64,000 bases of DNA from an uncultured Verrucomicrobiae bacterium (GTDB lineage Bacteria > Verrucomicrobiota > Verrucomicrobiia > Limisphaerales > UBA11358), in contig CAWDKS010000003.1 in NCBI GenBank assembly GCA_963802965.1, forward strand, positions 274,813 to 338,812, read 5' to 3'. A program made the position numbers and the translations under genes. Position 1 is the first letter of the stretch; the number at the start of each line of letters is the position of its first letter. Positions 8,715-56,273 of the stretch are shown here, piece by piece. A model generated the notes under the pieces. That model did not search any database, had not been told where the DNA came from, and saw nothing but the letters and a program-made list of their open reading frames with translations.

Positions 8715-8806
8715 CGACCGGACATTTACGATTTGCGATATACGATTTACAAGGCTGCTCCAATTTCGAGACTGGCGCGTAAATCGTAAATCGTCATTCG
8801 TAAATG
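8715..8806. repeat. simple-sequence hairpin (ATTTACG/CGTAAAT units)
   Basis: catttacgatttgcgatatacgatttac ... gtaaatcgtaaatcgtcattcgtaaatg. Same architecture and unit as 11015-11095. Confidence 0.55.
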
Positions 8807-11014: not shown

Positions 11015-11095
11015 AGATTTACGATGGACGATTTACGAGGTGAATTTGGAACGAAGCGCGATTCGTAAATCGAAAATCGCAAATCGTAAATGGCT
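11015..11095. repeat. simple-sequence hairpin (ATTTACG/CGTAAAT units)
   Basis: agatttacgatggacgatttacgagg ... cgattcgtaaatcgaaaatcgcaaatcgtaaatgg, lying between smpB and rpoZ. Confidence 0.55.
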
Positions 11096-14855: not shown

Positions 14856-15000
14856 AACCACGGATGGACACGGATGAACACGGATGCAGACAAGGCAAAA
14901 TGGCGTCTTCAGGGAACCGGGAATACCTCGTTGGCCAGTGAACTCATTTACTTTGCTGAAGTCTTTTTCTATCCGTGTTTATCCGTGTCCATCCGTGGTT
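14856..15000. repeat. MITE-like element with 30-bp terminal inverted repeats built from CACGGATG units
   Basis: aaccacggatggacacggatgaacacggat (14857-14886) against atccgtgtttatccgtgtccatccgtggtt (14971-15000). 29 of 30 positions are complementary, with an 84-bp spacer. Confidence 0.7.
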
Positions 15001-23554: not shown

Positions 23555-23806
23555 TGCCGCCATTTTGGGAGCTTCTCCCGCGTTCTTGACCACTCCCGCC
23601 GCGAACGTGGAATCCTTTGCCGCGATTCTGGTTTCTCTTGCCGCCGATTTGAAACCCGCTGCCGCACTTTTGGGAATGGTTGCCGCGAAATTGGAAACTC
23701 CTGCCGCAAACTTGGGAGCTTCCGCTGCGAACTTGGAGGTCGTTGCCGCGAATTTGGAAATCCTTGCCGCATTCCCGCAACCTTCTGCCGCAGAGCTAAT
23801 TATACA
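23555..23806. repeat. tandem array, 12 units of exactly 21 bp (consensus TGCCGCGAAnTTGGAAnnnnn)
   Basis: Unit starts fall at 23555, 23576, 23597 ... 23786, so phasing is kept without indels. The edge units are degenerate. The array is open in several frames. Confidence 0.85.
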
Positions 23807-23959: not shown

Positions 23960-24461
<502 letters not shown>

Positions 24462-34783: not shown

Positions 34784-35512
34784 ATGAAAAAACATGTCCC
34801 TCAAATACCTCGTATCATTGCAATGGCGGCCGTCACCGGACTCCTTGCAATTGCAGTAAATACCGCTCGTGCCCAGTCGGCCGACCTTGTTGATCAATCT
34901 GTGTTTCCGACCATCACGGCCCAACCAGTGGACCAGGCCGTCACCGTGGGGTCGAGTGCCACCTTCAGCGTGCAGGCAGTCAATGGCGACACCTATCAAT
35001 GGCAGTCCAACGGGGTTGACATTGCGGGACAAACCAACAGCACGCTGACCCTGCAAAACGTCGGGGTCAATAACGCGGGATCATATTCTTGTAATGTTTC
35101 CCAGAGCGGCGGAGATCCTGTGCCGACCCGCGCGGCGTCTTTGAACGTGGTGCAGCCTCTTGATTTGGGCGGAGACCAGCTTGTTGTCTTTGGCTTTCCC
35201 AAGGCTAGTAATGGCACACTCGGCACCTGTCCGGGCACTTTCGTCGGCTATGTTAATTACACCAAGACCATTGCCCAAGGCTGGGGTTGGGTGCCTTTGA
35301 CCAATACCACAGTTTTTACGGCGGCTGATGGCAGCGGGCGGTTGGATACAAAAATTGGATATACGGGAAAATATGGCGATACCGGCTGCAATCAAACAAC
35401 CGTCACCATTCCCAATCCTCCATTCAGTCCCAGTTACAGATTCACCATCTATTTTCCGAGTAATGTGCCGACAACCAACTATCCCATCGTCCTGACCGGA
35501 TTTAATCCTTAA
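34784..35512 (+). CDS. secreted Ig-like (I-set type) domain protein
   Basis: Signal peptide MKKHVPQIPRIIAMAAVTGLLAIAVNTARAQ, then ITAQPVDQAVTVGSSATFSV...YQWQSNG...LTLQNVGVNNAGSYSCNV. Confidence 0.7.
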   Translation: MKKHVPQIPRIIAMAAVTGLLAIAVNTARAQSADLVDQSVFPTITAQPVDQAVTVGSSATFSVQAVNGDTYQWQSNGVDIAGQTNSTLTLQNVGVNNAGSYSCNVSQSGGDPVPTRAASLNVVQPLDLGGDQLVVFGFPKASNGTLGTCPGTFVGYVNYTKTIAQGWGWVPLTNTTVFTAADGSGRLDTKIGYTGKYGDTGCNQTTVTIPNPPFSPSYRFTIYFPSNVPTTNYPIVLTGFNP

Positions 35513-35608
35513 GCTTTTGGAAAGTGGGAATTAGGGGTTTCCAAAAAAACAAACCGGGCTGAACGAAAGTTCAGCCCGGTTTTCAGTTCCTTGGCAGCCG
35601 TGGGTAAT

Positions 35609-36051
35609 TCATCCGGCGGCAAAGTTGACGGTGTTGCTCGGTGGTGTGAGTGGATTCTCATCACCGTCCATCGGCACAATGTAAAACTTGTGGCCGGCCG
35701 CGTCCGCCGGATCATCGAAGTCAGTGGCCCAGGTGCGCAGAGCGCCTTGCACCTGTCCGAGGTTGCCTGTTTCGACGCCGTTTGCGCATTGTCTGATGTC
35801 GTCAATTTTGCCTGCGCCGTGGTGATGAGCGTGCCGAACGCCGTCAATGTTGGCGTGGGGGTTGCGAAGGTCGCGTTGCCCGTCAACGCGGTTTTTATAT
35901 CGCTGCATTTCTGAATGATTTCGCCATCCGACAAACGACTTAGATTTAACTTCACTTTAGCCATTTTTTTCCCTTTGGTTGTGGGCGCTATGACATCGTC
36001 ATAGAGCACGCCGCTGTCATAAGTGAGTCCAGGAGTGTCGTAAAATGCCAT
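35609..36051 (-). pseudogene. hypothetical gene apparently split by a frameshift near 35760
   Basis: ORF 35509-36051 reads MAKVKLNLSRLSDGEIIQKCSDIKTALTGNATF...KQATSD and then turns into implausible sequence. ORF 35609-35908 in another frame ends with a plausible ...GALRTWATDFDDPADAAGHKFYIVPMDGDENPLTPPSNTVNF. Confidence 0.35.
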
Positions 36052-36168
36052 AAGCGCCCTGAGTTGATTTTGCGCTTTTATTTCAACAAATTTTCCAAAA
36101 GCGTCAATCCACGGTTTTTGGTTTTCTTAAATCAAAATAATTCCAATGCTCATCGTCACGGGATGAGC

Positions 36169-36420
36169 GTTGACTGGAATCGAAAGCGTGTTGCGTAACC
36201 TGAAGCCTGTGCTGATGAGCAACGTATCTGTGTTAGTCAGCACACGATTTTCGCTGACTAGCACACCTTCTTTGCTGGTGAGCAAAACGTCCATGCTAAT
36301 CATCACAAGCCTCATGCCAACCAACAAAATTTCTGTGCTGACGAACATAAGGCTTATGCTGACGAACACAAGGTTTGTGCTAACGAACATAACAAAAATG
36401 TCAGTCAGAAAATGGCCGAT
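36169..36420. repeat. tandem array, 12 units of exactly 21 bp (consensus GCTGACGAACAnAAGGnTTnT), AT-rich
   Basis: Unit starts fall at 36169, 36190, 36211 ... 36400 with no indels. The array is covered by open frames on both strands (36170-36472 + and 36127-36483 -). Confidence 0.85.
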
Positions 36421-36637
36421 TTTGGCCGGAAACAAGGCCGTTTTGGAGAGAAAATTCGCCGGAACACCCTGAAAAACAAGCATTTAACCACGAATGTGAA
36501 ATATAGGCATGATTTCTTTGAAAGAATGATGATCCCTGGCGCGTAATAATGTTGTCCGACCGATTCAGAAGTTTAACCAGGACCACGTATGACAAAACCA
36601 CTAACGGCACTCATTTTAGTCTCAACACTGATTCTGG

Positions 36638-36815
36638 CTACGCCAATTTCTTCGCGATGTGCTCGTCCAGAATTTCCTGCACGGTCAGGGCAACGATGAC
36701 TTTATGACTGCGCTTGAAAAATGATTCGATTTCCTGCAACGCATCCGAAGAATAATCGAAGGATACGAAAAATCCCTTTTCGCAATCCTCGCGCATCATC
36801 ATGGCTTCAAAGGCG
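36638..36815 (-). pseudogene. C-terminal remnant of a beta-class DNA methyltransferase
   Basis: ...FEAMMMREDCEKGFFVSFDYSSDALQEIESFFKRSHKVIVALTVQEILDE resembles the C-terminal domain found after many N4/N6 MTase cores. There is no MTase core upstream of it. Confidence 0.5.
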
Positions 36816-38057
36816 TCAATGTTCGGCTTTGATTCCCGACACCAAGTATTCATAAAGCTCCTTTTTCGACGTGCGCTTTCGCAACGTGCGAACGGCCACT
36901 TCATTGAATCCCGCCTCTCGAAACATCGCGGCAAATATCTGTTCGACCGGCAACAGCACATCATAGAACTTTGAATTGCCAACGATGTAATTTATCTGCC
37001 CGCCACCTTTCACAACTTTATGAAGCGCCTGAACGTGATGCGTCATGTCGTGAAAATATTTGTCAACATAGGTGGCCAATACACCGCTACGTGAACGAAT
37101 GTCCTGAATGATTTTGTCAAAAGGTTCAAATGGAATCGGCTTTGCACCATTGCGATTCCACTTTTGAAGATTACTCGTGGCACAACCCCATGTTCCACCA
37201 ATGGCCTCCCAGTCAAGTTCTCCTGCTTGCCGACCATTTGTCAAAAATCCGAGCCAATACATATAAGGCCGCAGTTCGCGGATGTAACTCATGCGATTCG
37301 GATATGGCGGCGACGTGATAACGCAATCATAATGGTTGTGTTTCAATTCTTCATCGAGTCGTCGCGCGTCCACGAGCGAAACAGACACGTCGGCTTTCAT
37401 TGGCGAATATGCCGCATCAAGAACATTTTTTGATGCCCGCTGCCAATTTGCTACGAAGTCCGATCTTTTGTCGTGAAACAGGCTTGGATGGGCTGGGGCT
37501 TTGAAAGACATGGATTGATGGCCGAAGCTGACGTTGGCTGTTTCAATCATCACACGGCAAAAAACAATTTTGAGCAAATTCGCCACCGCAAGCTCGTCCG
37601 TCTTGGCACGAATACCTGCCATTGCGTGCCCAAGCAACCTCAAGGTTTCGGCATCCCACCATTTTTCTATTTCGTGGATTGCTGGAATCCATTCGTCGCT
37701 GCTGCCATTTGTGGCTTTGGCAAGCACCGCCAAAGATGCGTCGGCAAAGTTTTCCAATTCAGCCGTGGGATAATTCGCGCATTTGGTTTGTGTCAGCCAA
37801 ATCAGAAATGGATTGATGTCAATTGTGTCTGCCCGAATGCCACGCTCGGCGCATACCAGAGCAGTCGTGCCAGTTCCGCAAAACGGATCGAGAACGACTC
37901 CATCCGAAAGGTCAATTTCATCAAGAATATCGCCGACGAGATGCACGGAGTAAGCAGGCGTAAGCCGCAGCCAGCCATAACGAGTATGTTTCAGATTTGC
38001 TCTTTGAGTCAGGCGTTCTGTAAATCCAAATCGCGGTTGTTCGATGACGGTATTCAT
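36816..38057 (-). CDS. type II DNA methyltransferase (N6-adenine or N4-cytosine)
   Basis: 413 aa. Motif I is VVLDPFCGTGTTALV and motif IV is CVITSPPYPNR, with motif I preceding motif IV. AT-richer than the flanks. Confidence 0.85.
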   Translation of the reverse strand: MNTVIEQPRFGFTERLTQRANLKHTRYGWLRLTPAYSVHLVGDILDEIDLSDGVVLDPFCGTGTTALVCAERGIRADTIDINPFLIWLTQTKCANYPTAELENFADASLAVLAKATNGSSDEWIPAIHEIEKWWDAETLRLLGHAMAGIRAKTDELAVANLLKIVFCRVMIETANVSFGHQSMSFKAPAHPSLFHDKRSDFVANWQRASKNVLDAAYSPMKADVSVSLVDARRLDEELKHNHYDCVITSPPYPNRMSYIRELRPYMYWLGFLTNGRQAGELDWEAIGGTWGCATSNLQKWNRNGAKPIPFEPFDKIIQDIRSRSGVLATYVDKYFHDMTHHVQALHKVVKGGGQINYIVGNSKFYDVLLPVEQIFAAMFREAGFNEVAVRTLRKRTSKKELYEYLVSGIKAEH

Positions 38058-38935
38058 CAGGTTGAAAGCAGAGCTTTGAGAACATTCTCAACTTCGCTTT
38101 TGATACGAGGCGAGAAACGAGTGAAGAAGTCTGCCAAATCGTAACCGACAATTTCGCGGCAAAAAGAATAAGCGCTGGTGGTTGTTGAATCAGAAAGATT
38201 GCCGGTTAGAAGAACCCAAAGATTTTCGCGGTAACGCTGTGCGACATCACCATCAATTTGCGTCGAGAACAAAAGTAGAACAGGAACGTATAAATTCGCA
38301 TATGCTTTGGAGGCGTTAGCAATGTCTGCGTTCTGACGCTTGGAATCCTTGCTTTTGTAACCTTGCCGCGTTTCAAAGACGATTCCCTTGATATTTTTCA
38401 GCGTGTCGGCAGGAAGTCGAATTTGATTTGCAACTTCAACGAGCCAATTTTGAACTTTGGCGCGGGCTTCGGCGTTTTTCACGTCGTTGAGCGCCACCCT
38501 GCCATCAAGCGTCAACGTGCGTTGTTTGCCACGTGCGCCGTCAATTTTGTAACTCCAAATTGCCTGTTCTCGGTTTAGACCGAAATGGTCCTGCAACATT
38601 TGATAAAATACCCACTGTCCACCAATTCCGATTTGCCGATAAATTGATGTCATTCCACCTGCCGCCTTGTGTGCCGCATACATCAGCGGCGAATCAACTC
38701 CGAACCAATGATAAAATGGGTCGGCACTATACAGTGCAGTAAATTGTTCCAATGAGAACCCTTCTTTTCGTCCCTTTCCGAACCTAGGTTTATATTCCAG
38801 GCATTTGCGAAGAGCAGTTTGAATCAGCAGAAAATAACGCTCGTCCTTTGAAAGATTTGAGGGCAATGGCGGTGGCGGGCCTGCATTCTCTTCGAGAACG
38901 TCCAGTTCGGATGTAATTTCGTGTTCGTCGTTCAA
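38057..38935 (-). CDS. putative type II restriction endonuclease partner
   Basis: 292 aa, coupled to the MTase with its stop overlapping the MTase ATG at 38057. The family is not identifiable by eye. The call rests on position and on composition shared with the MTase. Confidence 0.5.
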   Translation of the reverse strand: MNDEHEITSELDVLEENAGPPPPLPSNLSKDERYFLLIQTALRKCLEYKPRFGKGRKEGFSLEQFTALYSADPFYHWFGVDSPLMYAAHKAAGGMTSIYRQIGIGGQWVFYQMLQDHFGLNREQAIWSYKIDGARGKQRTLTLDGRVALNDVKNAEARAKVQNWLVEVANQIRLPADTLKNIKGIVFETRQGYKSKDSKRQNADIANASKAYANLYVPVLLLFSTQIDGDVAQRYRENLWVLLTGNLSDSTTTSAYSFCREIVGYDLADFFTRFSPRIKSEVENVLKALLST

Positions 38936-38980
38936 GCGTTTTTTTGCCGTTCAATTCAGGCGCATTGATTTTTAACAGAT

Positions 38981-39451
38981 TTACGTCATCGGCACGAGAG
39001 CGTTTTGAAAATTATTTTCTCCGAAAATCTGGTCGAGCATGACCTTGACGTAGTCGCTGGCGTGCCAGTCACAGTGGTGATAAAAGCTGCCGGTCTTTTT
39101 GAGGACGCGGGCCAGTTGCACGCAGCGCGGGCGCATGTAGTCAATATAGGCGCGGGTGGATTCGTGGCGGTCTTCAAAGGCGCGCTTCTCCTTGGTCTCG
39201 CCCCAAAAGACCTCGTAGTTGCGGTTGGAGTTGAAGGGCGGGTCAATGTAAATCAAATCCACGCAGGCGTCGGGCAGCTTGGCGAGCTGTTCCAGATTGT
39301 CGCCGCAATAAACGACGCGGGTGTCGAGGAGGCTGCTGGCGCGTAGCGGCGTTGGTGACAACGCGGATTCTTTGGCGTCGGCGTTGGGTTTCCGCGCCTT
39401 CACAGGCGCGGCTACGGTCGCGGAAGATTTCGCAGCGGCCTTTTTTGCCAT
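38981..39451 (-). pseudogene. N-terminal fragment of a beta-class DNA methyltransferase
   Basis: From MAKKAAAKSS. Contains VDLIYIDPPFNSNRNY (motif IV first) and LDQIFGENNFQN, then diverges (ALVPMT-stop) where NEIIW-type sequence and motif I should follow. Confidence 0.7.
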
Positions 39452-39655
39452 GCGGGGAGAATAATAGTTTTCAACCAGCTTGCAAGTTCGCGTCGCTGCC
39501 AATTGTTTTGCCTTTGATCAGGGACGGCGACACGCCGTCCCTCCCATTGAGCTTGCTGTCGCCCCGGCCGGGGCTTGATTTTTTTAATCGCACAAACCCA
39601 CGGTTTTACCGTGGGCTACCATCGGTCGCTGCTCCGCAGCTACAAATGGATGGCC

Positions 39656-42600
39656 CTAAAAACTCAACTGCAGGCTCACGGCCAGGGTGCGCGAGCGCGG
39701 AAGTTCGTTGTAAAGGTTGAGCGGGTTCAAACTGTAATTTTGACCGGCGATGTTGAGCAGGCCGAGCGTGAATTCAGCTTTTCGATGCAGGAAACGGTAA
39801 CCGGCAAACGCGTTGAATTGCCAGAAGTCAGCGCCCGGTTCACCGGGGGGAGTATAGCCGCTGTTGTTTTGACCATACCAATTGGCCTCTCCCCGGGCAA
39901 AGAAACCGCAGGGATGATTGTAAACCGCCGACAAACCCAATTCCTGTAAAACCCCCTTCATCCGCTGACTTGGAATTATCGGATTACTGATGGGTGGTGG
40001 ACTGACCGGCACATCGGGAAAATTGTCATTCAAAACCGCCTGGCTAATGAGATAGCGCGCGCCGAGCGACCAGTCCCGGCCCAGCAACTGGTTGGCGGTG
40101 AACAGCAGCGATTTTTCCTGGTAATCCAAATTCTCGCGCAGTCCTTGCGGAATGGGATCGTCAAACCCGTCGGGATAATAATTGAAGACGCCGTCAACCC
40201 GGTTCACGGTGGAGTTCAATATCTCGCCGGACAGGCCCAGATAAGTCCCGGTGCTGAATTTTTGCTCCAGCGAAAGGTCGTAGGTTTCAAATTTGGCCCC
40301 GGCATTGTCCCCGGCGATGGATTCAGGGATGATGCTGCGGAAGGATTGGACAAAGCCCGCCACCTGCGAAGGTTCCAGTTGATAGCTTTGGTCCACGCTC
40401 GCGCCGGCCAACGAGCGCGTGTAGGCAAAACGGACGGTGGTTTTGTCCAGCGGCGTCCAAATCAGGCCGGCTTTGGGCGAAACCTGATCCGCCGGCGTGT
40501 CGTTCCCGGAAATGGGCGCGCTCCGAAAATTTTCCGGGTAGGTGATATGGTCATAAGTCACACCGCCAATCAATTGCAACGGCTCGAAAATCCGCCATTG
40601 ATGATAGCCATAAAAACTGACGCGCTTGAACAGGGTAGTGAAGTCCTGTTCCGGCGGAGGATCCAGGAAATCAGCGGTGACGGGGACAGGATTGGCCTGT
40701 AAAACCGAAGTGTCAAAATGACCATACTGGATACGCGCGCCGACAATGGTATTGTGGACCGGCCCCTCCCAAATCTGCTGCAGTTCTCCCGAATAAATAT
40801 CCAACCTGTTCCAATAAAGTTCACTCGCCGTAATATTCTGCGCAGACTCGAAGGTGCTTAAAGTGGGGACGCCGATGAAATTGTTCGGAAAGACTTGAAA
40901 CAGGGAAGGCTGCGCGAAGTTGTTGAACGAACCAGTGTCGTTGAGACGGGCCGCAAAAAACAAAGTGTGGACCCCGGGACTCCATTCATGATGATAGCCA
41001 AGGCTTACAATTGGAGTTTGATTTTCCTTTGCGCGAAAAGTCGGGCTGGCCAGGCTTTGGTCGTAGTATTGGGACAGGTCTCCGCTTTCCGCCTCGTATT
41101 GCTGGACATTCACATAAACACTGTCCTGCGGCGTAAGCTGTTGCTTGACCGTCAGGAAAAATCGCCGCTGATAAATGTCGTCGTTCGGGCGCTGGCCCGG
41201 GTCGGAATGATAGGAGGCCTCAAAGTCATAGCTGAAATTCCCGAACGTCCCGAACTGCGCACCCGACTGGGTCCAGGCCCCGCGGCTGAGATATTCCGTG
41301 TCCGAAGCGACCCCAAAGCGATTGCGTGTGAACAACGGGGAATATTCCTGCTGTGAGATGGTGGGCGAGAACATGCCGGCGCTCACCGGGGCCAGCAAAT
41401 TGGCCAGCAGATATTCAGTCTCGGCGGGGGTTTCATAACGGAGATTAATCTCGTTCGGATCAACCAGTTCATGATAGCTGTCCGCCAGAAAATGATGCGC
41501 GGAGTAATTCGCGTAATCGTCATTCACCGCCCGGGAGGCCTCGCGCACGGCCACGTCATTCATGCCCGCGTCCCGATACATCGCCGCCAGATTCGCGCTG
41601 CGCACCGCCTGGTCCTGGTCCAGCAGCAGTTGCGAGCGATAGACGCTCCGGTTGTCATTCAATGACTGCGATTTTTCCAAATCGCGGATGGCGTCGTTGA
41701 TCCGGTTGTTTTCCTGGTTGAGCAGGGCGGAATAAAGCCACGGCGTCGGGTCATTGGGATCCAATTTTTCCGCGAGCTGGAATTCCCTGGCGGCGCGCGG
41801 AAAATCGCCCGCATCCGCATAAGCCTTGCCCAGATAGCTTCGCAACCCGGCGCGCTGCGGCTCGAGCGCCGCGGCCACCAGCAGGTCTTCGCGTCCGCCC
41901 CGGGCGTCGCCGCGGCGGATGCGGCACAGACCGCGACCCAGCCACGCGTTGCCGAGGGCGGAGTCCACGGCGAGCGCCTGGTCGAACCAGCCGATGGCTT
42001 CGCCGGCGCGATTTTGCGCCGCGAGCAGGAATCCCTTCAACGCGAGCGCCTGGGCATTGCGCGGCGCAAGGGCGAGGCTTTTGTCCAGGGCGTCGAGCGC
42101 CCGGTCGTTATGACCGAAACTAAATTCCAATTCCGCCACCCGCTCCCGGGCAAAACCGAAATCCGGCGAGTTGGTCGCGGCCTGCCGGGCGGAATCCAGC
42201 GCGGCCGGCAATGAAACTCCGGGGATGGCGCGCGATTGTTCGTAATAGGAGTCCGCCAGGAATTCCGCGGCCAGTTGTGGACGGACCGCCGCCGGGGCCG
42301 GCTGCCGCTTCACGGCGGCGATGAGCCGGCGCAGGGACAGGGCAATCCGTTGCGGACGGCTGGAGGCATTGGTGACGGACAAGGAAGCCAGCACCGTTTC
42401 GGCCGGTTCAACCTGTCCGACACCGAGAAGCAGGCCGGCATAATAAACCCGCTCCGCGTCGGAGCCGGGCTGCCGCCCGACCGGATATTGGGCCAGCGCC
42501 ACCGGCAGATCGCCCGCGCGGTAAGCCCGGAGGGATTCGCCGAGGATTTTTTGTTCTTCCGGTGTGAACGGCAAATCGTTCGGATCAATCACCGCCGGAT

Positions 42601-43279
42601 AGTAAAAGCACCATTGCAGGACGTTGTTGGCAATGAAACCCGCGGTGCGAACGGGCACTTTGCCCGGCTCGACGACGGCTTGCTGGCCGTTGGTCAGCAG
42701 CAGCGCGGCCTGTTCGTTGCCAAACCGGACCTTGCCGTCAATCACGGACATCGTGCTGCGCCAAGCGTCATCCGCCAGGACGAATTCCGTGCCCTCCACC
42801 CCGGCAATGGCGCCGCGGGTGATGACCCGGATGCGTCCCGGTTCGTCACGATGAAAAAACGAGAGGATGCCCCGGAACAAATGCAGTCCGCATTGCGCAT
42901 CGAATGAATCCGGCGGCAGCACTTCGACCTCCGTCAAAGCGCCGAAGGACACCACGCTCCGATCCGACCAGAGGAATGCAATCCGGCTGTTGGCGCCGGT
43001 GTGCAACCGGTCGAACGGATGCAGGATTTGGCCGGTTTGCGCGGGCGCCCAGATGGTGGCACCGCCGGGAGCGATCTCCGCCGTGCCTTGCAGTTCCACA
43101 ATCCGGATTTCGTTCGTGGCCGCGCCGCCGGCCATCGGCTGCGCACAACATACCCCGGCGCAAGCGAGCAAACCCCAAACAGTTGCGGTCGCCAAAAGAC
43201 CGCGTCCGGCTTTAAGAAACAAGTTCAAGCGTTTTAATCCCTTCACGCGTCTGAGTGATGAACGTGATGAGATAAGCAT
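39656..43279 (-). CDS. secreted FecR-domain / TPR / C-terminal beta-barrel (outer-membrane-like) protein
   Basis: 1207 aa. Signal peptide, then a FecR-like region (VELQGTAEI...GVEGTEFVL...VIDGKVRF) and TPR repeats at aa ~390-590. A long region with alternating beta pattern follows and ends ...RTLAVSLQLSF. Confidence 0.75.
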   Translation of the reverse strand: MLISSRSSLRRVKGLKRLNLFLKAGRGLLATATVWGLLACAGVCCAQPMAGGAATNEIRIVELQGTAEIAPGGATIWAPAQTGQILHPFDRLHTGANSRIAFLWSDRSVVSFGALTEVEVLPPDSFDAQCGLHLFRGILSFFHRDEPGRIRVITRGAIAGVEGTEFVLADDAWRSTMSVIDGKVRFGNEQAALLLTNGQQAVVEPGKVPVRTAGFIANNVLQWCFYYPAVIDPNDLPFTPEEQKILGESLRAYRAGDLPVALAQYPVGRQPGSDAERVYYAGLLLGVGQVEPAETVLASLSVTNASSRPQRIALSLRRLIAAVKRQPAPAAVRPQLAAEFLADSYYEQSRAIPGVSLPAALDSARQAATNSPDFGFARERVAELEFSFGHNDRALDALDKSLALAPRNAQALALKGFLLAAQNRAGEAIGWFDQALAVDSALGNAWLGRGLCRIRRGDARGGREDLLVAAALEPQRAGLRSYLGKAYADAGDFPRAAREFQLAEKLDPNDPTPWLYSALLNQENNRINDAIRDLEKSQSLNDNRSVYRSQLLLDQDQAVRSANLAAMYRDAGMNDVAVREASRAVNDDYANYSAHHFLADSYHELVDPNEINLRYETPAETEYLLANLLAPVSAGMFSPTISQQEYSPLFTRNRFGVASDTEYLSRGAWTQSGAQFGTFGNFSYDFEASYHSDPGQRPNDDIYQRRFFLTVKQQLTPQDSVYVNVQQYEAESGDLSQYYDQSLASPTFRAKENQTPIVSLGYHHEWSPGVHTLFFAARLNDTGSFNNFAQPSLFQVFPNNFIGVPTLSTFESAQNITASELYWNRLDIYSGELQQIWEGPVHNTIVGARIQYGHFDTSVLQANPVPVTADFLDPPPEQDFTTLFKRVSFYGYHQWRIFEPLQLIGGVTYDHITYPENFRSAPISGNDTPADQVSPKAGLIWTPLDKTTVRFAYTRSLAGASVDQSYQLEPSQVAGFVQSFRSIIPESIAGDNAGAKFETYDLSLEQKFSTGTYLGLSGEILNSTVNRVDGVFNYYPDGFDDPIPQGLRENLDYQEKSLLFTANQLLGRDWSLGARYLISQAVLNDNFPDVPVSPPPISNPIIPSQRMKGVLQELGLSAVYNHPCGFFARGEANWYGQNNSGYTPPGEPGADFWQFNAFAGYRFLHRKAEFTLGLLNIAGQNYSLNPLNLYNELPRSRTLAVSLQLSF

Positions 43280-52502: not shown

Positions 52503-53246
52503 TCAGCTTCCACTCGTCGTGGTTAAAACCATGTTCGTGCGCGACTGCGAATCAATCGGCACAACCATTTCAATCGGTTCCGCCGTCGCGCCGCCATTGC
52601 CCGACATTTGAATGTCCACGCGGACGGCGGACGGCAGGTTCGTGTTCATCGAGGTCAGGCCGGTGGTGTCCCAGGTGTCCTGCCATTGCGAGCCGTCAAA
52701 GCAGGAAAATTTGATGCTCGCCACGCCGCTCAGCATGAGCTGGTCTTCCACTTCCGGCGTCGTCAGGGTCAACAGATTCCGCGTGACGCTGCGGACCAAA
52801 TCCCGGCCGGTGGCGGAGCGGTCGGCCGGCTGCCTCAACTCGTAGGTGACGCGCTGGATGTCGGCCCACGGCGCGTTGACGCCCAACGCGCCGGTCGCGG
52901 TGAACATCTCGATCGCCACCGGTTCGGGCACGCCGGGACTGGTCACGTCGCCGACCTTGAAATCGCCGGACAGAACCTTGCTCGTCCCGTTGGTCGGCGT
53001 CACGGCGCACTGCAAATCGCGGCGCAAAAACGTGACCGTCTGATCCACCGGCCCGGCCGCGTCCACGACATCGCTTGTCGCCTCGCGCAGACGCAGCGCG
53101 GCAAACAGCACGGCGTTGACGGCGATCAGCACAATGGCCGCGACGCCGATGGCGAGAACCATCTCAATCAGCGTGAACGCGTGGCACGGCGTTGAAGCGT
53201 TGAAGCGTTGAAGCGTTGAAGTGGGCAACGTGCGGCCACGCTGCAT
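52503..53246 (-). CDS. GspJ-like minor pseudopilin
   Basis: ...STLQRFNASTPCHA-FTLIEMVLAIGVAAIVL. Start uncertain (ATG 53246 or 53300). Confidence 0.65.
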   Translation of the reverse strand: MQRGRTLPTSTLQRFNASTPCHAFTLIEMVLAIGVAAIVLIAVNAVLFAALRLREATSDVVDAAGPVDQTVTFLRRDLQCAVTPTNGTSKVLSGDFKVGDVTSPGVPEPVAIEMFTATGALGVNAPWADIQRVTYELRQPADRSATGRDLVRSVTRNLLTLTTPEVEDQLMLSGVASIKFSCFDGSQWQDTWDTTGLTSMNTNLPSAVRVDIQMSGNGGATAEPIEMVVPIDSQSRTNMVLTTTSGS

Positions 53247-53299
53247 CGTTTCAACGCTGCATCGCTCCAACGGCCTATCTTTTTTTGTTTCAATTTTCA

Positions 53300-53806: not shown

Positions 53807-54377
53807 AACCCGTGTGGTTGCGCGTTTCGATCAGCCAGCGCGAAACGCCGGCGGAGTCCGTCAATTGCAGCGTCTGCGGACTGTTTTCATCCACCGTGCC
53901 ATCCGCCAGAAAACGGATGGCCGGCAAATTGTTGAAAGTTGTCGGCGTGCCCGAACCAGTATTCAGCACCGCGATTTGCAGCGTTGAATCCACCGGCAAA
54001 GTTTCCGCCTTCGGGTCGCCGGTCTTGCCGGTTGTTTCCGCTTCGAGTCCGTAGGCGCCCTGTTTTTCGTCCACCCAAAGCACCATCGGCAGGCCCTCCG
54101 AAACCGCGCGGCTCTGGCCGGCGTGCATCAGCGCGAACAGCCGCCGCGCCTCGGAATCCAGCGCGCGGCCGCGGATGAAATTCGCCATCGCCGGCGCGGC
54201 GAGCGACGTGATGACGACCAGCAACGCCAGAACGAGGGTCAACTCGATCAGGGTGAAGGCCCGACGAAGCGTTGAAGCGTTGAAGCGTTGAAGTGTTGAA
54301 ACGGAAAAAGCGCCGTCCCGCTGCAACGCTGGAACGTTGCAACACTTCAACAGGGCATTTCGCTTCAACAATTTCAT
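53781..54377 (-). CDS. GspH-like minor pseudopilin
   Basis: ...STLQRFNASTLRRA-FTLIELTLVLALLVV. Confidence 0.7.
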   Translation of the reverse strand: MKLLKRNALLKCCNVPALQRDGAFSVSTLQRFNASTLRRAFTLIELTLVLALLVVITSLAAPAMANFIRGRALDSEARRLFALMHAGQSRAVSEGLPMVLWVDEKQGAYGLEAETTGKTGDPKAETLPVDSTLQIAVLNTGSGTPTTFNNLPAIRFLADGTVDENSPQTLQLTDSAGVSRWLIETRNHTGYEIRDTKQ

Positions 54378-56166: not shown

Positions 56167-56181
56167 TTGAAATTCAGGAAA

Positions 56182-56273
56182 ACATCCAACAACGAACATC
56201 CAACAACGAACATCCAATGCACGGAAAGCCACCGCCATTGGGCGTTGGATGTTGGATGTTGGATGTTGGATGT
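56182..56273. repeat. simple-sequence hairpin (CATCCAA / TTGGATG units) between gspE and gspF
   Basis: acatccaacaacgaacatccaacaacgaacatccaatgc ... gcgttggatgttggatgttggatgttggatgt. Confidence 0.7.

Follow-up and report, generated by a model that had tools for sequence, protein, structure and literature searches.

A degenerate, phased 21-bp tandem array in a Verrucomicrobiae genome: an orphan set of putative binding sites for a dimeric DNA-binding protein

The window analysed here, a 64,000-nucleotide stretch from an uncultured Verrucomicrobiae bacterium, carries 12-15 units of 21 bp in a head-to-tail run that is real but degenerate, its weaker units stretching to about positions 36127-36441. 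We tentatively interpret this array as non-coding DNA, a phased row of putative sites at which a dimeric protein would bind DNA sequence-specifically. What inclines us, with some reserve, to this interpretation is the dyad symmetry of the unit, its uneven conservation, the retention of phase and the restriction of the box to the array. The array is an orphan, with no adjacent rep or par gene and no plasmid or phage match.

The core array (36169-36420) contains 12 units at 21-bp intervals, the first starting at 36169 and the last at 36400, with the consensus GCTGACnAgCAnAa-n7. Its self-identity is 0.545 at a lag of 21, 0.529 at 42 and 0.534 at 63, compared with 0.16-0.35 at every other lag. When lags of 6-60 were scanned, the two strongest periodic signals of the window were this array and a second one at 23555-23806 (peaks of 0.62 and 0.60; lag-21 window background 0.287 ± 0.045). 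Each unit was scored with a leave-one-out matrix at shifts of -4 to +4, and shift 0 was best for every one of them, indicating that the array is without indels. The mean pairwise identity between core units is 0.50, and similarity between units survives only in the youngest, units 9-11 (36337-36399; 86% and 62%). Tandem Repeats Finder calls just this young part (36336-36392, 2.7 copies, 86% identity), in agreement with the earlier note on this DNA, which had placed the best conserved units at 36337-36399. The distance of the units to the consensus is 0.37, or 0.51 after Jukes-Cantor correction, giving about 128 inferred substitutions; despite these, the 12 core units and 3 flanking units all sit at shift 0.

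Two decayed in-phase units lie at the left edge (36127-36168, best shift 0) and two more, with GGCC-N-GGCC mini-hairpins, at the right edge (36421-36462; Tandem Repeats Finder 36406-36454, period 21). On a matrix background of -15.8 ± 7.2, the flanking units at 36127, 36148 and 36421 score 5.6, 2.6 and 4.0, above core units 1 and 2 (-0.5 and 1.5); a count of 12 copies, the same as in the other array, therefore delimits the array only roughly. Thus the period, the phase and the lack of indels described in the earlier note are borne out, but its number of units is approximate. Likewise, the two arrays are indeed unrelated in sequence (profile z=-1.07), but an exact shared copy number does not hold, and a comparison of their flanks found nothing shared (best E=0.19). 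The array is AT-rich relative to the window, as had been stated, with a GC content of 0.43-0.46 versus about 0.60; its flanks have a GC content of 0.43-0.45, with no distinct AT-rich block, and the best DnaA-box-like 9-mer, near 36104, matches 6/9 positions by eye. Intrinsic curvature arising from the 21-bp phasing was considered and set aside: in a wedge model this array is ordinary (0.924, 31st percentile), and the 23555-23806 array falls in the top 0.7%.

Each unit consists of a 12-bp near-palindrome, TGYTRA|YNARCA (half-site TGYTRA), and then a 9-bp spacer that is almost free to vary in sequence, so that box centres lie 21 bp, or two helical turns, apart. The dyad axis falls between unit columns 5 and 6 and pairs columns 21-11, 1-10, 2-9 and 3-8. 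The unit profile has a dyad score of 0.483, compared with 0.362 ± 0.027 in column-permuted profiles (p=0.0004), and the half-palindrome recognised previously was located as GTGCTGAC at 36335 and GTCAGCAC at 36236. Conservation is concentrated in the box arms, the conserved columns being symmetric partners in the dyad: columns 21, 1, 8 and 11 are conserved in 11-12 of the 12 units, and columns 15-16 hold only 0.1-0.2 bits. A variance test for uneven column conservation gave p=0.002, a value that treats the units as independent and is inflated by their shared ancestry. Exact matches to the box number five in the 64-kb window, where 0.21 would be expected, and all five fall inside the array between 36210 and 36389 (starts 36210, 36231, 36336, 36357 and 36378); the box at 36231, in unit 4, reads on the minus strand in a register identical to that of the others. 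No box occurs elsewhere in the window, and therefore no regulon is visible.

The ORFs in the 33-40 kb region of the window are those for a kinase, an Ig-domain protein (34784-35512), a restriction enzyme, a methyltransferase, a broken methyltransferase and a TPR/outer-membrane-like protein (39656-43279), together with a small frameshifted gene. The array had been described as lying downstream of the broken methyltransferase (38981-39502), but the relation is not direct, since two features intervene: an intact mobile restriction-modification (R-M) cassette (36826-38935) and the remnant of a nuclease domain (36638-36982), which has an internal deletion. The cassette, a type II restriction endonuclease and methyltransferase, is found in four related contigs at 79-83% nucleotide identity, in other contexts and without 21-bp periodicity; the idea that the array is part of the cassette was rejected on this ground. 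No candidate binding protein adjoins the array (Pfam and PADLOC on neighbouring ORFs), and no rep, par or integrase gene was found in the 33-40 kb region.

The nearest gene with its 5' end toward the array lies on the minus strand (35609-35964; it starts MAKVKLNLSRLSDGEIIQKCSDIKTALTGNATFATPTPTL), its ATG at 35964 being about 205 bp from the array edge, and is followed by a terminator with a 14-bp stem (35582-35551). It has a frameshift near 35760 and looks like a pseudogene now; neither a Pfam family nor a PADLOC match (defence models, which should include type III toxins) was found for it. On the array side, a hairpin with an 11-bp stem, CAATGCTCATC-N7-GATGAGCGTTG, occupies 36144-36172 (-15.7 kcal/mol on the plus strand, -12.0 on the minus strand) and overlaps the decayed unit at 36148. 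It was left unflagged by a consensus terminator scan; on the minus strand it is followed by a U-rich stretch, so that it might act as a weak terminator separating the array from the gene on its left. A functional tie of the facing gene to the array is only a lead.

The facing gene matches, in its N-terminal domain, a gene at L098:6566-7177, from a Chitinophagaceae MAG (pairwise BLASTP E=1e-6; tblastn E=0.006 in a 1.55-Mb set), a locus that had been retrieved by DNA pattern alone. In L098 eight 21-bp units lie about 140 bp upstream of the ATG of this homologue, and the array is identical in a second assembly of the organism. The homologue has an FN3-like C-terminus, the window gene sharing the N-terminal domain only. 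By direct reading, the L098 unit contains ATTGTTgccaAACAAT, with six consecutive complementary pairs on the same axis as in the window unit, four of the six pairs being not fully fixed by the search pattern. The association of gene and array counts two loci (n=2), which weighs against binding sites.

Further 21-bp arrays were collected by pattern searches. A loose 3-unit pattern returned at least 120 loci, with unrelated arrays among the matches listed, and a strict 2-unit pattern returned mostly coding Ala-Asp-Glu repeats together with the non-coding arrays L160, L175 and L169. The similarity of this array to L081, L169 and L098 is largely imposed by the search patterns, and the pattern-found arrays as a set showed no excess of likeness to it over what the pattern imposed. 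Among arrays from one pattern, palindromic pairing was greater in those standing alone than in those within long ORFs (5.80 versus 5.31 of 10 pairs; Mann-Whitney p=0.013). The gene ends flanking 49 stand-alone arrays comprise 39 that are 5'-facing and 30 that are 3'-facing (p=0.17), so such arrays are not generally promoter-linked. Two ideas were dropped: 21 bp was not borne out as a specially favoured period, since many different periods occur among secondary arrays of the retrieved loci, and the recurrent neighbour families are mostly abundant housekeeping ones (GAPDH, SDR, AAA ATPases).

Stand-alone arrays from Chitinophagaceae (L098/L213), metagenomes (L160 and L175), Calothrix and Nostoc (L081/L051) and Tolypothrix and Nostoc (L038/L013) resemble the window array in their 21-bp period, in their 8-17 copies in strict phase and, for most, in a location outside long ORFs, L160 and L175 being without any open frame. 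Several have a palindromic box, such as ATTGTT-N4-AACAAT in L098 and TTGGTGACCAA in L038, and the L098 array shares with the window array its place upstream of related genes. In contrast to the window array, most are far more homogeneous (80-95%), while their units are unrelated to it save at pattern-imposed positions and a variety of genes (GAPDH, SDR and others) lies beside them. The gene families seen with this arrangement so far are that of the window and L098 (Verrucomicrobiae, Chitinophagaceae) and that of L160 and L055, of which L055 carries a CarboxypepD_reg domain; no kinship between the two families was detectable. Such arrays might represent an undescribed class of chromosomal cis-element, consisting of stand-alone runs of 8-15 dyad boxes at 21 bp that recur, in distant phyla, some 140-200 bp ahead of the 5' ends of particular small genes while their box sequences turn over. 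The arrays would then serve as a phase-locked protein scaffold by which the adjacent gene is switched or silenced, although we judge this whole reading unlikely.

As had been reported, open frames span the array on both strands: an ORF of 118 aa with an ATG start on the minus strand (36127-36483) and one of 100 aa with a TTG start on the plus strand (36170-36472). The proposal that either is a heptad-repeat micro-protein gene can appeal to these frames, to the ATG of the minus ORF, to Leu-like conserved positions that, read from the units, are written in several synonymous codons, and to a minus-strand product that is hydrophobic (GRAVY 1.01, 22 windows >1.6) and predicted by AlphaFold2 to be one long helix (pLDDT >90 at residues 21-70). 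That prediction is uninformative, because any hydrophobic heptad would be expected to give a single helix, and the similar heptads on the two strands arise because the DNA is dyad-symmetric, a property for which a coding repeat gives no reason. Column shuffles left the two frames stop-free in 64% and 79% of cases, such that open frames are expected by chance, and wobble columns are no less conserved than the other two codon-position classes (0.92 bits versus 0.93 and 0.74), indicating no codon periodicity. Both ORFs end no farther than about 40-65 bp from the array, and there is no Shine-Dalgarno-like sequence ahead of any of their starts. Homologues were absent from two word-indexed searches (5.8 billion proteins) and no family was assigned by Pfam or PADLOC; exhaustive HMMER (1.84 billion representatives) gave one borderline match (E=6.9e-4), which looks like a repeat ORF with a junk-like N-terminus, seemingly spurious over another 21-bp array. 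Neither ORF is present by exact sequence in a 15-billion-protein collection, in which a neighbouring 180-aa ORF does occur. On the shuffle test, codon positions, protein searches and exact look-up the coding reading was rejected and both ORFs were judged not to be genes, leaving a micro-protein highly improbable. We also think it very unlikely that the array acts through a minus-strand repeat RNA, formed as the 3' tail of a cassette transcript or ending at the 36144-36172 hairpin, and serving as a protein sponge or as a type III antitoxin-like element for the downstream gene. The order on the minus strand of tandem repeats, hairpin with U-rich tail and small gene, in a defence-rich region, does recall ToxI-ToxN and the related CptI and TenpI systems, and each strand of the array folds more stably than its shuffles do (z=-4.4 and -4.5). 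However, the folding excess is equal on the two strands because the boxes are palindromic DNA, a symmetry that differs from type III systems, and a 12-nt palindrome can form no more than a 4-bp stem capped by a 4-nt loop. Known type III antitoxin repeats, at 34-45 nt, are far longer than the 21-nt unit. Rfam gave no hit at either threshold used (gathering; E<=1), which to that extent excludes a known RNA family, and no ToxN/AbiQ/CptN endoribonuclease lies downstream, as judged by Pfam, PADLOC and the FN3-like C-terminus of the L098 homologue.

The array was also compared with known tandem-site elements. Plasmid iterons are tandem repeats of 20-22 bp, usually in 4-7 copies, upstream of repA (PMC12701580; PMC8155512), and they adjoin the rep gene with AT-rich repeats and palindromes nearby (PMC12701580). 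With 12-15 direct repeats of exactly 21 bp in helical phase, the array conforms to the iteron pattern of about 17-22 bp, and like the four 21-bp iterons of pFW12 and pYE-tet, or those of the R6K and RK2 types, it is arranged head-to-tail, with a conserved core and a less conserved remainder, in low-GC DNA; repeats of about 20-22 bp place iteron sites about two helical turns apart, and the binding of many copies of one protein would be shared by the putative site array. Each unit also holds a dyad-symmetric site (the 12-bp box, p=0.0004), recalling tandem-repeat centromeres (F sopC, pSK41 and R1 parC, pBtoxis tubC), with which it would have in common a putative dimer site per unit, a copy number of about 10-12 and the coating or wrapping of a few hundred bp; F sopC has 12 tandem repeats, each with a palindromic SopB box. 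A relic of such an element, from a degraded plasmid, phage or island that has lost its rep or par genes, would fit this architecture and the accessory, low-GC context, and to that extent the iteron- or centromere-like array suggested earlier stands as a tandem protein-binding array in accessory DNA. Its membership in either class fails on the genes and relatives expected: no Rep domain was found among the ORFs in 33-40 kb, and no ParA/ParB, ParM/ParR or TubZ/TubR operon among neighbouring ORFs. Searching 36050-36650 against 72,556 plasmid and 50,697 phage records (PLSDB, INPHARED; blastn at distant sensitivity) gave no relatives, and a pattern scan of viral contigs gave coding repeats only. 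Moreover, the array is chromosomal, beside an R-M cassette that travels without it; it exceeds the copy number of iterons, and its box is symmetric whereas the usual iteron is an asymmetric site to which a Rep monomer binds; and it differs from the centromeres in sequence and in period (21 bp versus 43, 20, 11 or 12 bp). We consider such a relic quite unlikely. The literature that we found on 21-bp arrays concerns only iterons of plasmids and 21-bp repeats of eukaryotic viruses. The chief competing explanation is a neutral, decaying minisatellite, in which a 21-bp unit, partly palindromic by chance, was amplified by slippage or unequal recombination within intergenic DNA that tolerated it and is now eroding without function. 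A palindromic founder unit, once amplified, would give dyad symmetry without present function, a point against binding sites. The array lies in low-GC accessory DNA amid decayed genes (the frameshifted gene, nuclease remnant and broken methyltransferase), and as in bacterial minisatellites (VNTR) it is a non-coding, intergenic tandem repeat with one young homogeneous end, just units 9-11 being still similar. Arrays of 21 bp with unrelated units are common in prokaryotes, given the at least 120 loci with the loose pattern, and the secondary arrays of the fetched loci show other periods. Neither a demonstrable homologous array, an adjacent binder nor a regulon in the window turned up, which favours a minisatellite and speaks against binding sites. 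On the other hand, VNTR loci usually have units of high similarity and variable copy number, whereas the units of this array are about 50% identical, in strict phase and with a conserved symmetric core. A neutral minisatellite would be expected to diverge evenly and to gather indels, but here conservation is uneven (variance p=0.002) and sits in the symmetric box arms, and about 0.5 substitutions/site have accumulated with zero phase shifts in 15 units. The usual indel-to-substitution ratio in bacterial non-coding DNA, roughly 0.03-0.1, would predict about 4-13 indels. The neighbouring gene can still be recognised, and neutral decay following the death of the locus therefore does not account for the divergence of the units. 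A minisatellite is thus a serious possibility that we nonetheless regard as rather unlikely.

For the reading that we prefer, a phased array of putative binding sites, a simple mechanism can be envisaged. At 10.5 bp per turn, 21 bp would correspond to two helical turns, a spacing that would place all boxes on one face of the helix. Dimers on adjacent boxes could then touch one another, covering about 250-300 bp of DNA or wrapping it gently; such multi-site coating or wrapping is the way in which operator arrays, iterons and plasmid centromeres function. The likeliest role of the array, albeit weakly supported, would be as an upstream control or occlusion element of the facing gene (35964 to 35609, minus strand). 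Since that gene is now pseudogene-like, the array may be a relic.

If the array is a decaying minisatellite, it illustrates that such arrays yield plausible-looking ORFs on both strands, which are not to be annotated as micro-proteins. If instead it is a working site array, it would mark a new DNA-binding protein and a mode of gene control or silencing in Verrucomicrobiae, a phylum whose regulation is hardly characterised. In that case the recurrences in unrelated phyla (window/L098 and L160/L055) would suggest a wider, unannotated class of phased intergenic arrays.

The array at 36169-36420 (array 2) forms 12 units in perfect register when 36106-36483 is laid out in 21-base lines. Its self-identity was 0.545, 0.529 and 0.534 at lags of 21, 42 and 63, and 0.16-0.35 at other lags. 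In a whole-window scan of lags 6-60, array 2 and the window's other 21-bp array (array 1, 23555-23806) were the top two periodic signals (peaks 0.62 and 0.60; lag-21 background 0.287 ± 0.045). A degenerate three-unit pattern matched four times within array 2 versus never in 100 shuffles, and with a leave-one-out position matrix all 12 core units were best placed at shift 0. Taken together, the register, lag identities and matrix placement bear out the earlier description of 12 phased units without indels; Tandem Repeats Finder detected only the young end (36336-36392). Because additional in-phase units at 36127, 36148 and 36421 scored high against the matrix (5.6, 2.6 and 4.0; background -15.8 ± 7.2), whereas the first two core units reached only -0.5 and 1.5, the array is better described as ~15 units with robust members at 36211-36399, and the copy number that the earlier note had equated with that of array 1 is only approximately the same. 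The two arrays are unrelated in sequence, as had been claimed, and comparison of their flanks likewise revealed no sequence relation.

Conservation within the unit is block-like rather than codon-like, with columns 21, 1-4, 8, 10, 11 and 13 conserved and columns 14-20 nearly free. A single dyad axis stands out in the profile; it falls between columns 5 and 6 and pairs columns 21-11, 1-10, 2-9 and 3-8 (score 0.483; next best axis 0.322; column-permuted profiles 0.362 ± 0.027, p=0.0004). Each unit thus consists of a 12-bp near-palindrome, TGYTRA|YNARCA, and a spacer of 9 bp. This box occurs five times within the 64-kb window, always in array 2 (0.21 expected); the match in unit 4 is to the other strand, with the register unchanged. 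Two octamers, GTGCTGAC (36335) and GTCAGCAC (36236), are present as reported. Dyad symmetry accounts for the similar heptads and open frames of the two strands, and for their equally good folding as RNA (z=-4.4 and -4.5). No such axis was found in array 1 (p=0.90).

Two open frames span the array as described, 36170-36472 (plus strand, 100 aa, TTG start) and 36127-36483 (minus strand, 118 aa, ATG start), and the longer had been proposed to encode a heptad-repeat micro-protein. Because the wobble positions of the two frames coincide, third-position arguments in their simple form do not tell the frames apart. When bases were shuffled within each unit column, preserving the repeat profile, 64% of shuffles left the plus frame free of stops, 79% the minus frame and 52% both. 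Wobble columns carry a mean of 0.92 bits versus 0.93 and 0.74 for the two remaining column classes, and all 12 units have G in column 1, which is a wobble position for either frame. The ORFs terminate ~40-65 bp beyond the array, and no ribosome-binding motif was seen before any of their starts. Neither ORF matched Pfam or defence-family models or had a homologue in a word-indexed search of 5.8 billion proteins. Exhaustive HMMER comparison of the 118-aa ORF with 1.84 billion representatives gave one match (E=6.9e-4); since this is a run of AFVSTDG heptads after a junk-like N-terminus, it looks like another ORF over a 21-bp array. By exact look-up neither ORF is present in a 15-billion-protein collection that does contain the adjacent 180-aa ORF (on a 1.14-Mb contig), so the annotation pipeline of this genome appears to have called no gene with these boundaries. 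The minus ORF is hydrophobic (GRAVY 1.01) and was modelled by AlphaFold2 as a single long helix, properties to be expected of any T-rich heptad. The shuffles, wobble columns, missing ribosome-binding motif, homologue searches and exact look-up disfavour coding in either frame. Array 2 is thus very probably non-coding; with frames so readily open by chance, no codon periodicity and no homologue family, we regard the micro-protein as highly improbable.

Array 2 units are on average 50% identical. Their distance to the consensus is 0.37 (Jukes-Cantor 0.51), corresponding to ~128 substitutions over 252 bp, despite which 15 units have kept exact phase. Mismatches are unevenly spread over the columns (variance 5.67 vs 2.67 expected, p=0.002), a result of moderate weight because the test assumes independent units and shared ancestry inflates it, and the conserved columns are symmetric partners. 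Since the neighbouring gene can still be recognised, neutral decay after the death of the locus is not enough to explain the divergence. Strict phase, uneven mismatches and the recognisable neighbour favour selection, whether past or ongoing, on the sequence of the boxes and on their spacing. The chief alternative is a minisatellite in decay: an amplified founder unit that was palindromic by chance would be compatible with the same phase, mismatch and neighbour-gene evidence, but it would have to accumulate that many substitutions without a phase shift and with the symmetric columns spared, and we consider it somewhat less likely than an array of binding sites. Array 2 also differs from an ordinary VNTR in its diverged units in strict phase and its symmetric conserved core.

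The array lies in a block (~35900 to 39000) where GC drops from ~0.60 to 0.43-0.51, together with a restriction-modification (R-M) pair and a nuclease-like remnant. The methyltransferase (M) gene (36816-38057; closest relatives 78-88% identical, some named Verrucomicrobiae MAG proteins, the window being from a genome of Verrucomicrobiae type) adjoins a type II restriction enzyme (38057-38935; PADLOC REase_II, E=9e-74), and a minus-strand PD-(D/E)XK-like nuclease-domain remnant (36638-36982) overlaps the M gene at its end; compared with a 134-aa version (L209:3512-3916) it has ~65 central residues deleted, including the putative catalytic core. The R-M pair (36826-38935) recurs in four other contigs (L209-L212) at 79-83% nucleotide identity in differing neighbourhoods, with methyltransferases 85-88% identical, and homology ends at the M gene end except for 61 bp of the nuclease remnant in L209. 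Judged from these comparisons the pair is a small mobile cassette; no transposase or integrase is present with it. One copy lies inside a 2-oxoacid dehydrogenase operon, beside brnTA and HEPN/NT modules. In the window the cassette seems to have disrupted a methyltransferase gene native to the genome (38981-39502, native GC). This is the broken methyltransferase downstream of which the array had been placed: the broken gene exists, but at the far side of the block, with the R-M pair between. The four cassette-bearing contigs have no 21-bp periodicity, which rules out array 2 as cassette cargo.

Array 1 has a conserved core, TGCCGC-N5-TGG, and a wedge model predicts strong curvature for it (end-to-end/contour 0.728, within the top 0.7% of all 252-bp segments in the window). 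It ends 163 bp upstream of brnT-brnA (23969-24461). The BrnA antitoxin of a related locus (L211) has a CopG_antitoxin domain, and ribbon-helix-helix proteins of this kind bind tandem repeats; no such array lies upstream of the L211 brnTA pair. The window also contains inverted pairs of short tandem-repeat blocks (8724-8805, 11016-11091, 14859-14997, 53189-53272, 54266-54351 and 56181-56273), each with a 7-10-bp unit repeated three to four times, a gap of 25-80 bp and the same block in reverse complement, for example (ATTTACG)4 ... (CGTAAAT)4. They would fold into long repeat-built hairpins and may constitute a family of intergenic elements dispersed through this genome.

The nearest gene to the left of array 2 is on the minus strand, starts at ATG 35964 (MAKVKLNL...) and has its 5' end towards the array; an 11-bp-stem hairpin (36144-36172) lies between them. 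Within 35509-36051 the frame changes near 35760, reflecting a pseudogene, sequencing error or programmed frameshifting; the C-terminal 52 residues, in the other frame, end at 35609, directly before a terminator with a 14-bp stem (35582-35551). The N-terminal 71 residues match a 203-aa Chitinophagaceae MAG protein (L098:6566-7177) at equivalent positions, with the motif L-x-G-N-x-x-F-x-T-P-T-P-x-L (pairwise E=1e-6; tblastn E=0.006 in a 1.55-Mb local set). No Pfam model exists for this family, which has an N-terminal helical domain and, in L098, an FN3-like domain. L098 was retrieved for its DNA array alone: eight 21-bp units ~140 bp upstream of the gene's ATG, an arrangement that matches the window's, where the distance is ~205 bp. 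Its unit GTTGCCAAACAATTGCTCATT contains ATTGTTgccaAACAAT, six consecutive complementary pairs on the same axis, four of them not fully fixed by the search pattern (chance of all four ~0.004). In another locus, L160, the 5' end of a 237-aa gene is 118-166 bp from an array, and its homologue in L055 (E=5e-6) has its 5' end 141 bp from another, unrelated 21-bp array; the two gene families have no detectable relation. Across all stand-alone arrays in the retrieved set there was no significant excess of 5'-facing neighbours (39 vs 30, p=0.17), and most other recurrent neighbours were abundant housekeeping families. The gene-array association is suggestive only.

Plasmid or phage relatives did not emerge, as blastn of 36050-36650 against plasmid and phage collections gave no match. 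A loose three-unit pattern found at least 120 loci over 185,579 genomes; among the matches listed, arrays came from all phyla with unrelated units, about half outside long ORFs and some without any open frame. A strict two-unit pattern in metagenomes and viral contigs yielded mostly coding Ala-Asp-Glu repeats, along with three stand-alone arrays (L160, L175 and L169). L160 and L175 are alike (z=6.8), partly because the same 10-nt pattern chose both. The arrays of these two metagenomic contigs (L160:1702-2037; L175:961-1233) are clearly non-coding, with stops in all six frames, and have 13-15 units in strict phase with a common core, G-N-CGAATGY-N-AAAY; the former has an addiction-module antitoxin gene with its partner close by, the latter lies between a glycosyltransferase terminator and a GltD-like gene. 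Because resemblance to array 2 did not exceed what the patterns imposed, the retrieved arrays include no demonstrable homologue of array 2. Nor is the 21-bp period obviously privileged, since secondary arrays at these loci show a variety of periods. Stand-alone arrays were somewhat more palindromic than in-ORF arrays found with the same pattern (5.80 vs 5.31 complementary pairs of 10, p=0.013; random 21-mers, 5.21), with palindromic consensus units such as TTGGTGACCAA in Tolypothrix (L038) and AACCAGAATCTGGTT in L039.

Related 21-bp arrays occur at several places in a Spirochaetaceae MAG (L005, L008 and L033; unit GCTGGCAAACAAACTTATTTT), where the short flanking ORFs also resemble one another, and in a Thermoanaerobaculia MAG (L039 and L088; units GTTGATAACCAGAATCTGGTT or GTTGTTGACCAGAATCTGGAT), an indication that some families of arrays are dispersed along with flanking sequence. 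Orthologous loci of Calothrix (L081:1512-1763) and Nostoc (L051:2960-3075) keep an array, G[CT]TGACGAGCAAAA[TA]A[AG]CCTC, lying 3' of a conserved gene of 158 aa (92% identical between them) in 12 and 8 copies, respectively, showing that such arrays persist yet change copy number between genera.

In array 2, dyad-symmetric boxes recur in phase along non-coding DNA, and both boxes and spacing bear signs of constraint. Our best, though tentative, reading is an orphan array of phased binding boxes. A dimeric DNA-binding protein would occupy the boxes and, because box centres are two helical turns apart, the dimers would align on one helix face and could bind cooperatively over ~250-300 bp. Operator arrays, iterons and tandem-repeat centromeres involve cooperative phased binding of the same type. 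None of the genes adjoining array 2 encodes a candidate binder. Its likeliest role would be to control or occlude the region upstream of the 35964 gene and, because a frameshift now interrupts this gene, the array may itself be a relic.

Plasmid iterons are described as lying upstream of repA and as having 4-7 tandem repeats, each 20-22 bp long (PMC12701580; PMC8155512). While array 2 would be analogous to iterons and tandem-repeat centromeres in its proposed working, it differs in having neither linkage to rep or par genes nor plasmid or phage relatives, and for this reason we do not file it with them; of the iteron- or centromere-like interpretation in the earlier note, the general idea of tandem protein-binding sites in accessory DNA fits, but membership of either class does not. 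Type III antitoxin RNA arrays differ in unit length and downstream gene, and array 2 has no RNA-family match.
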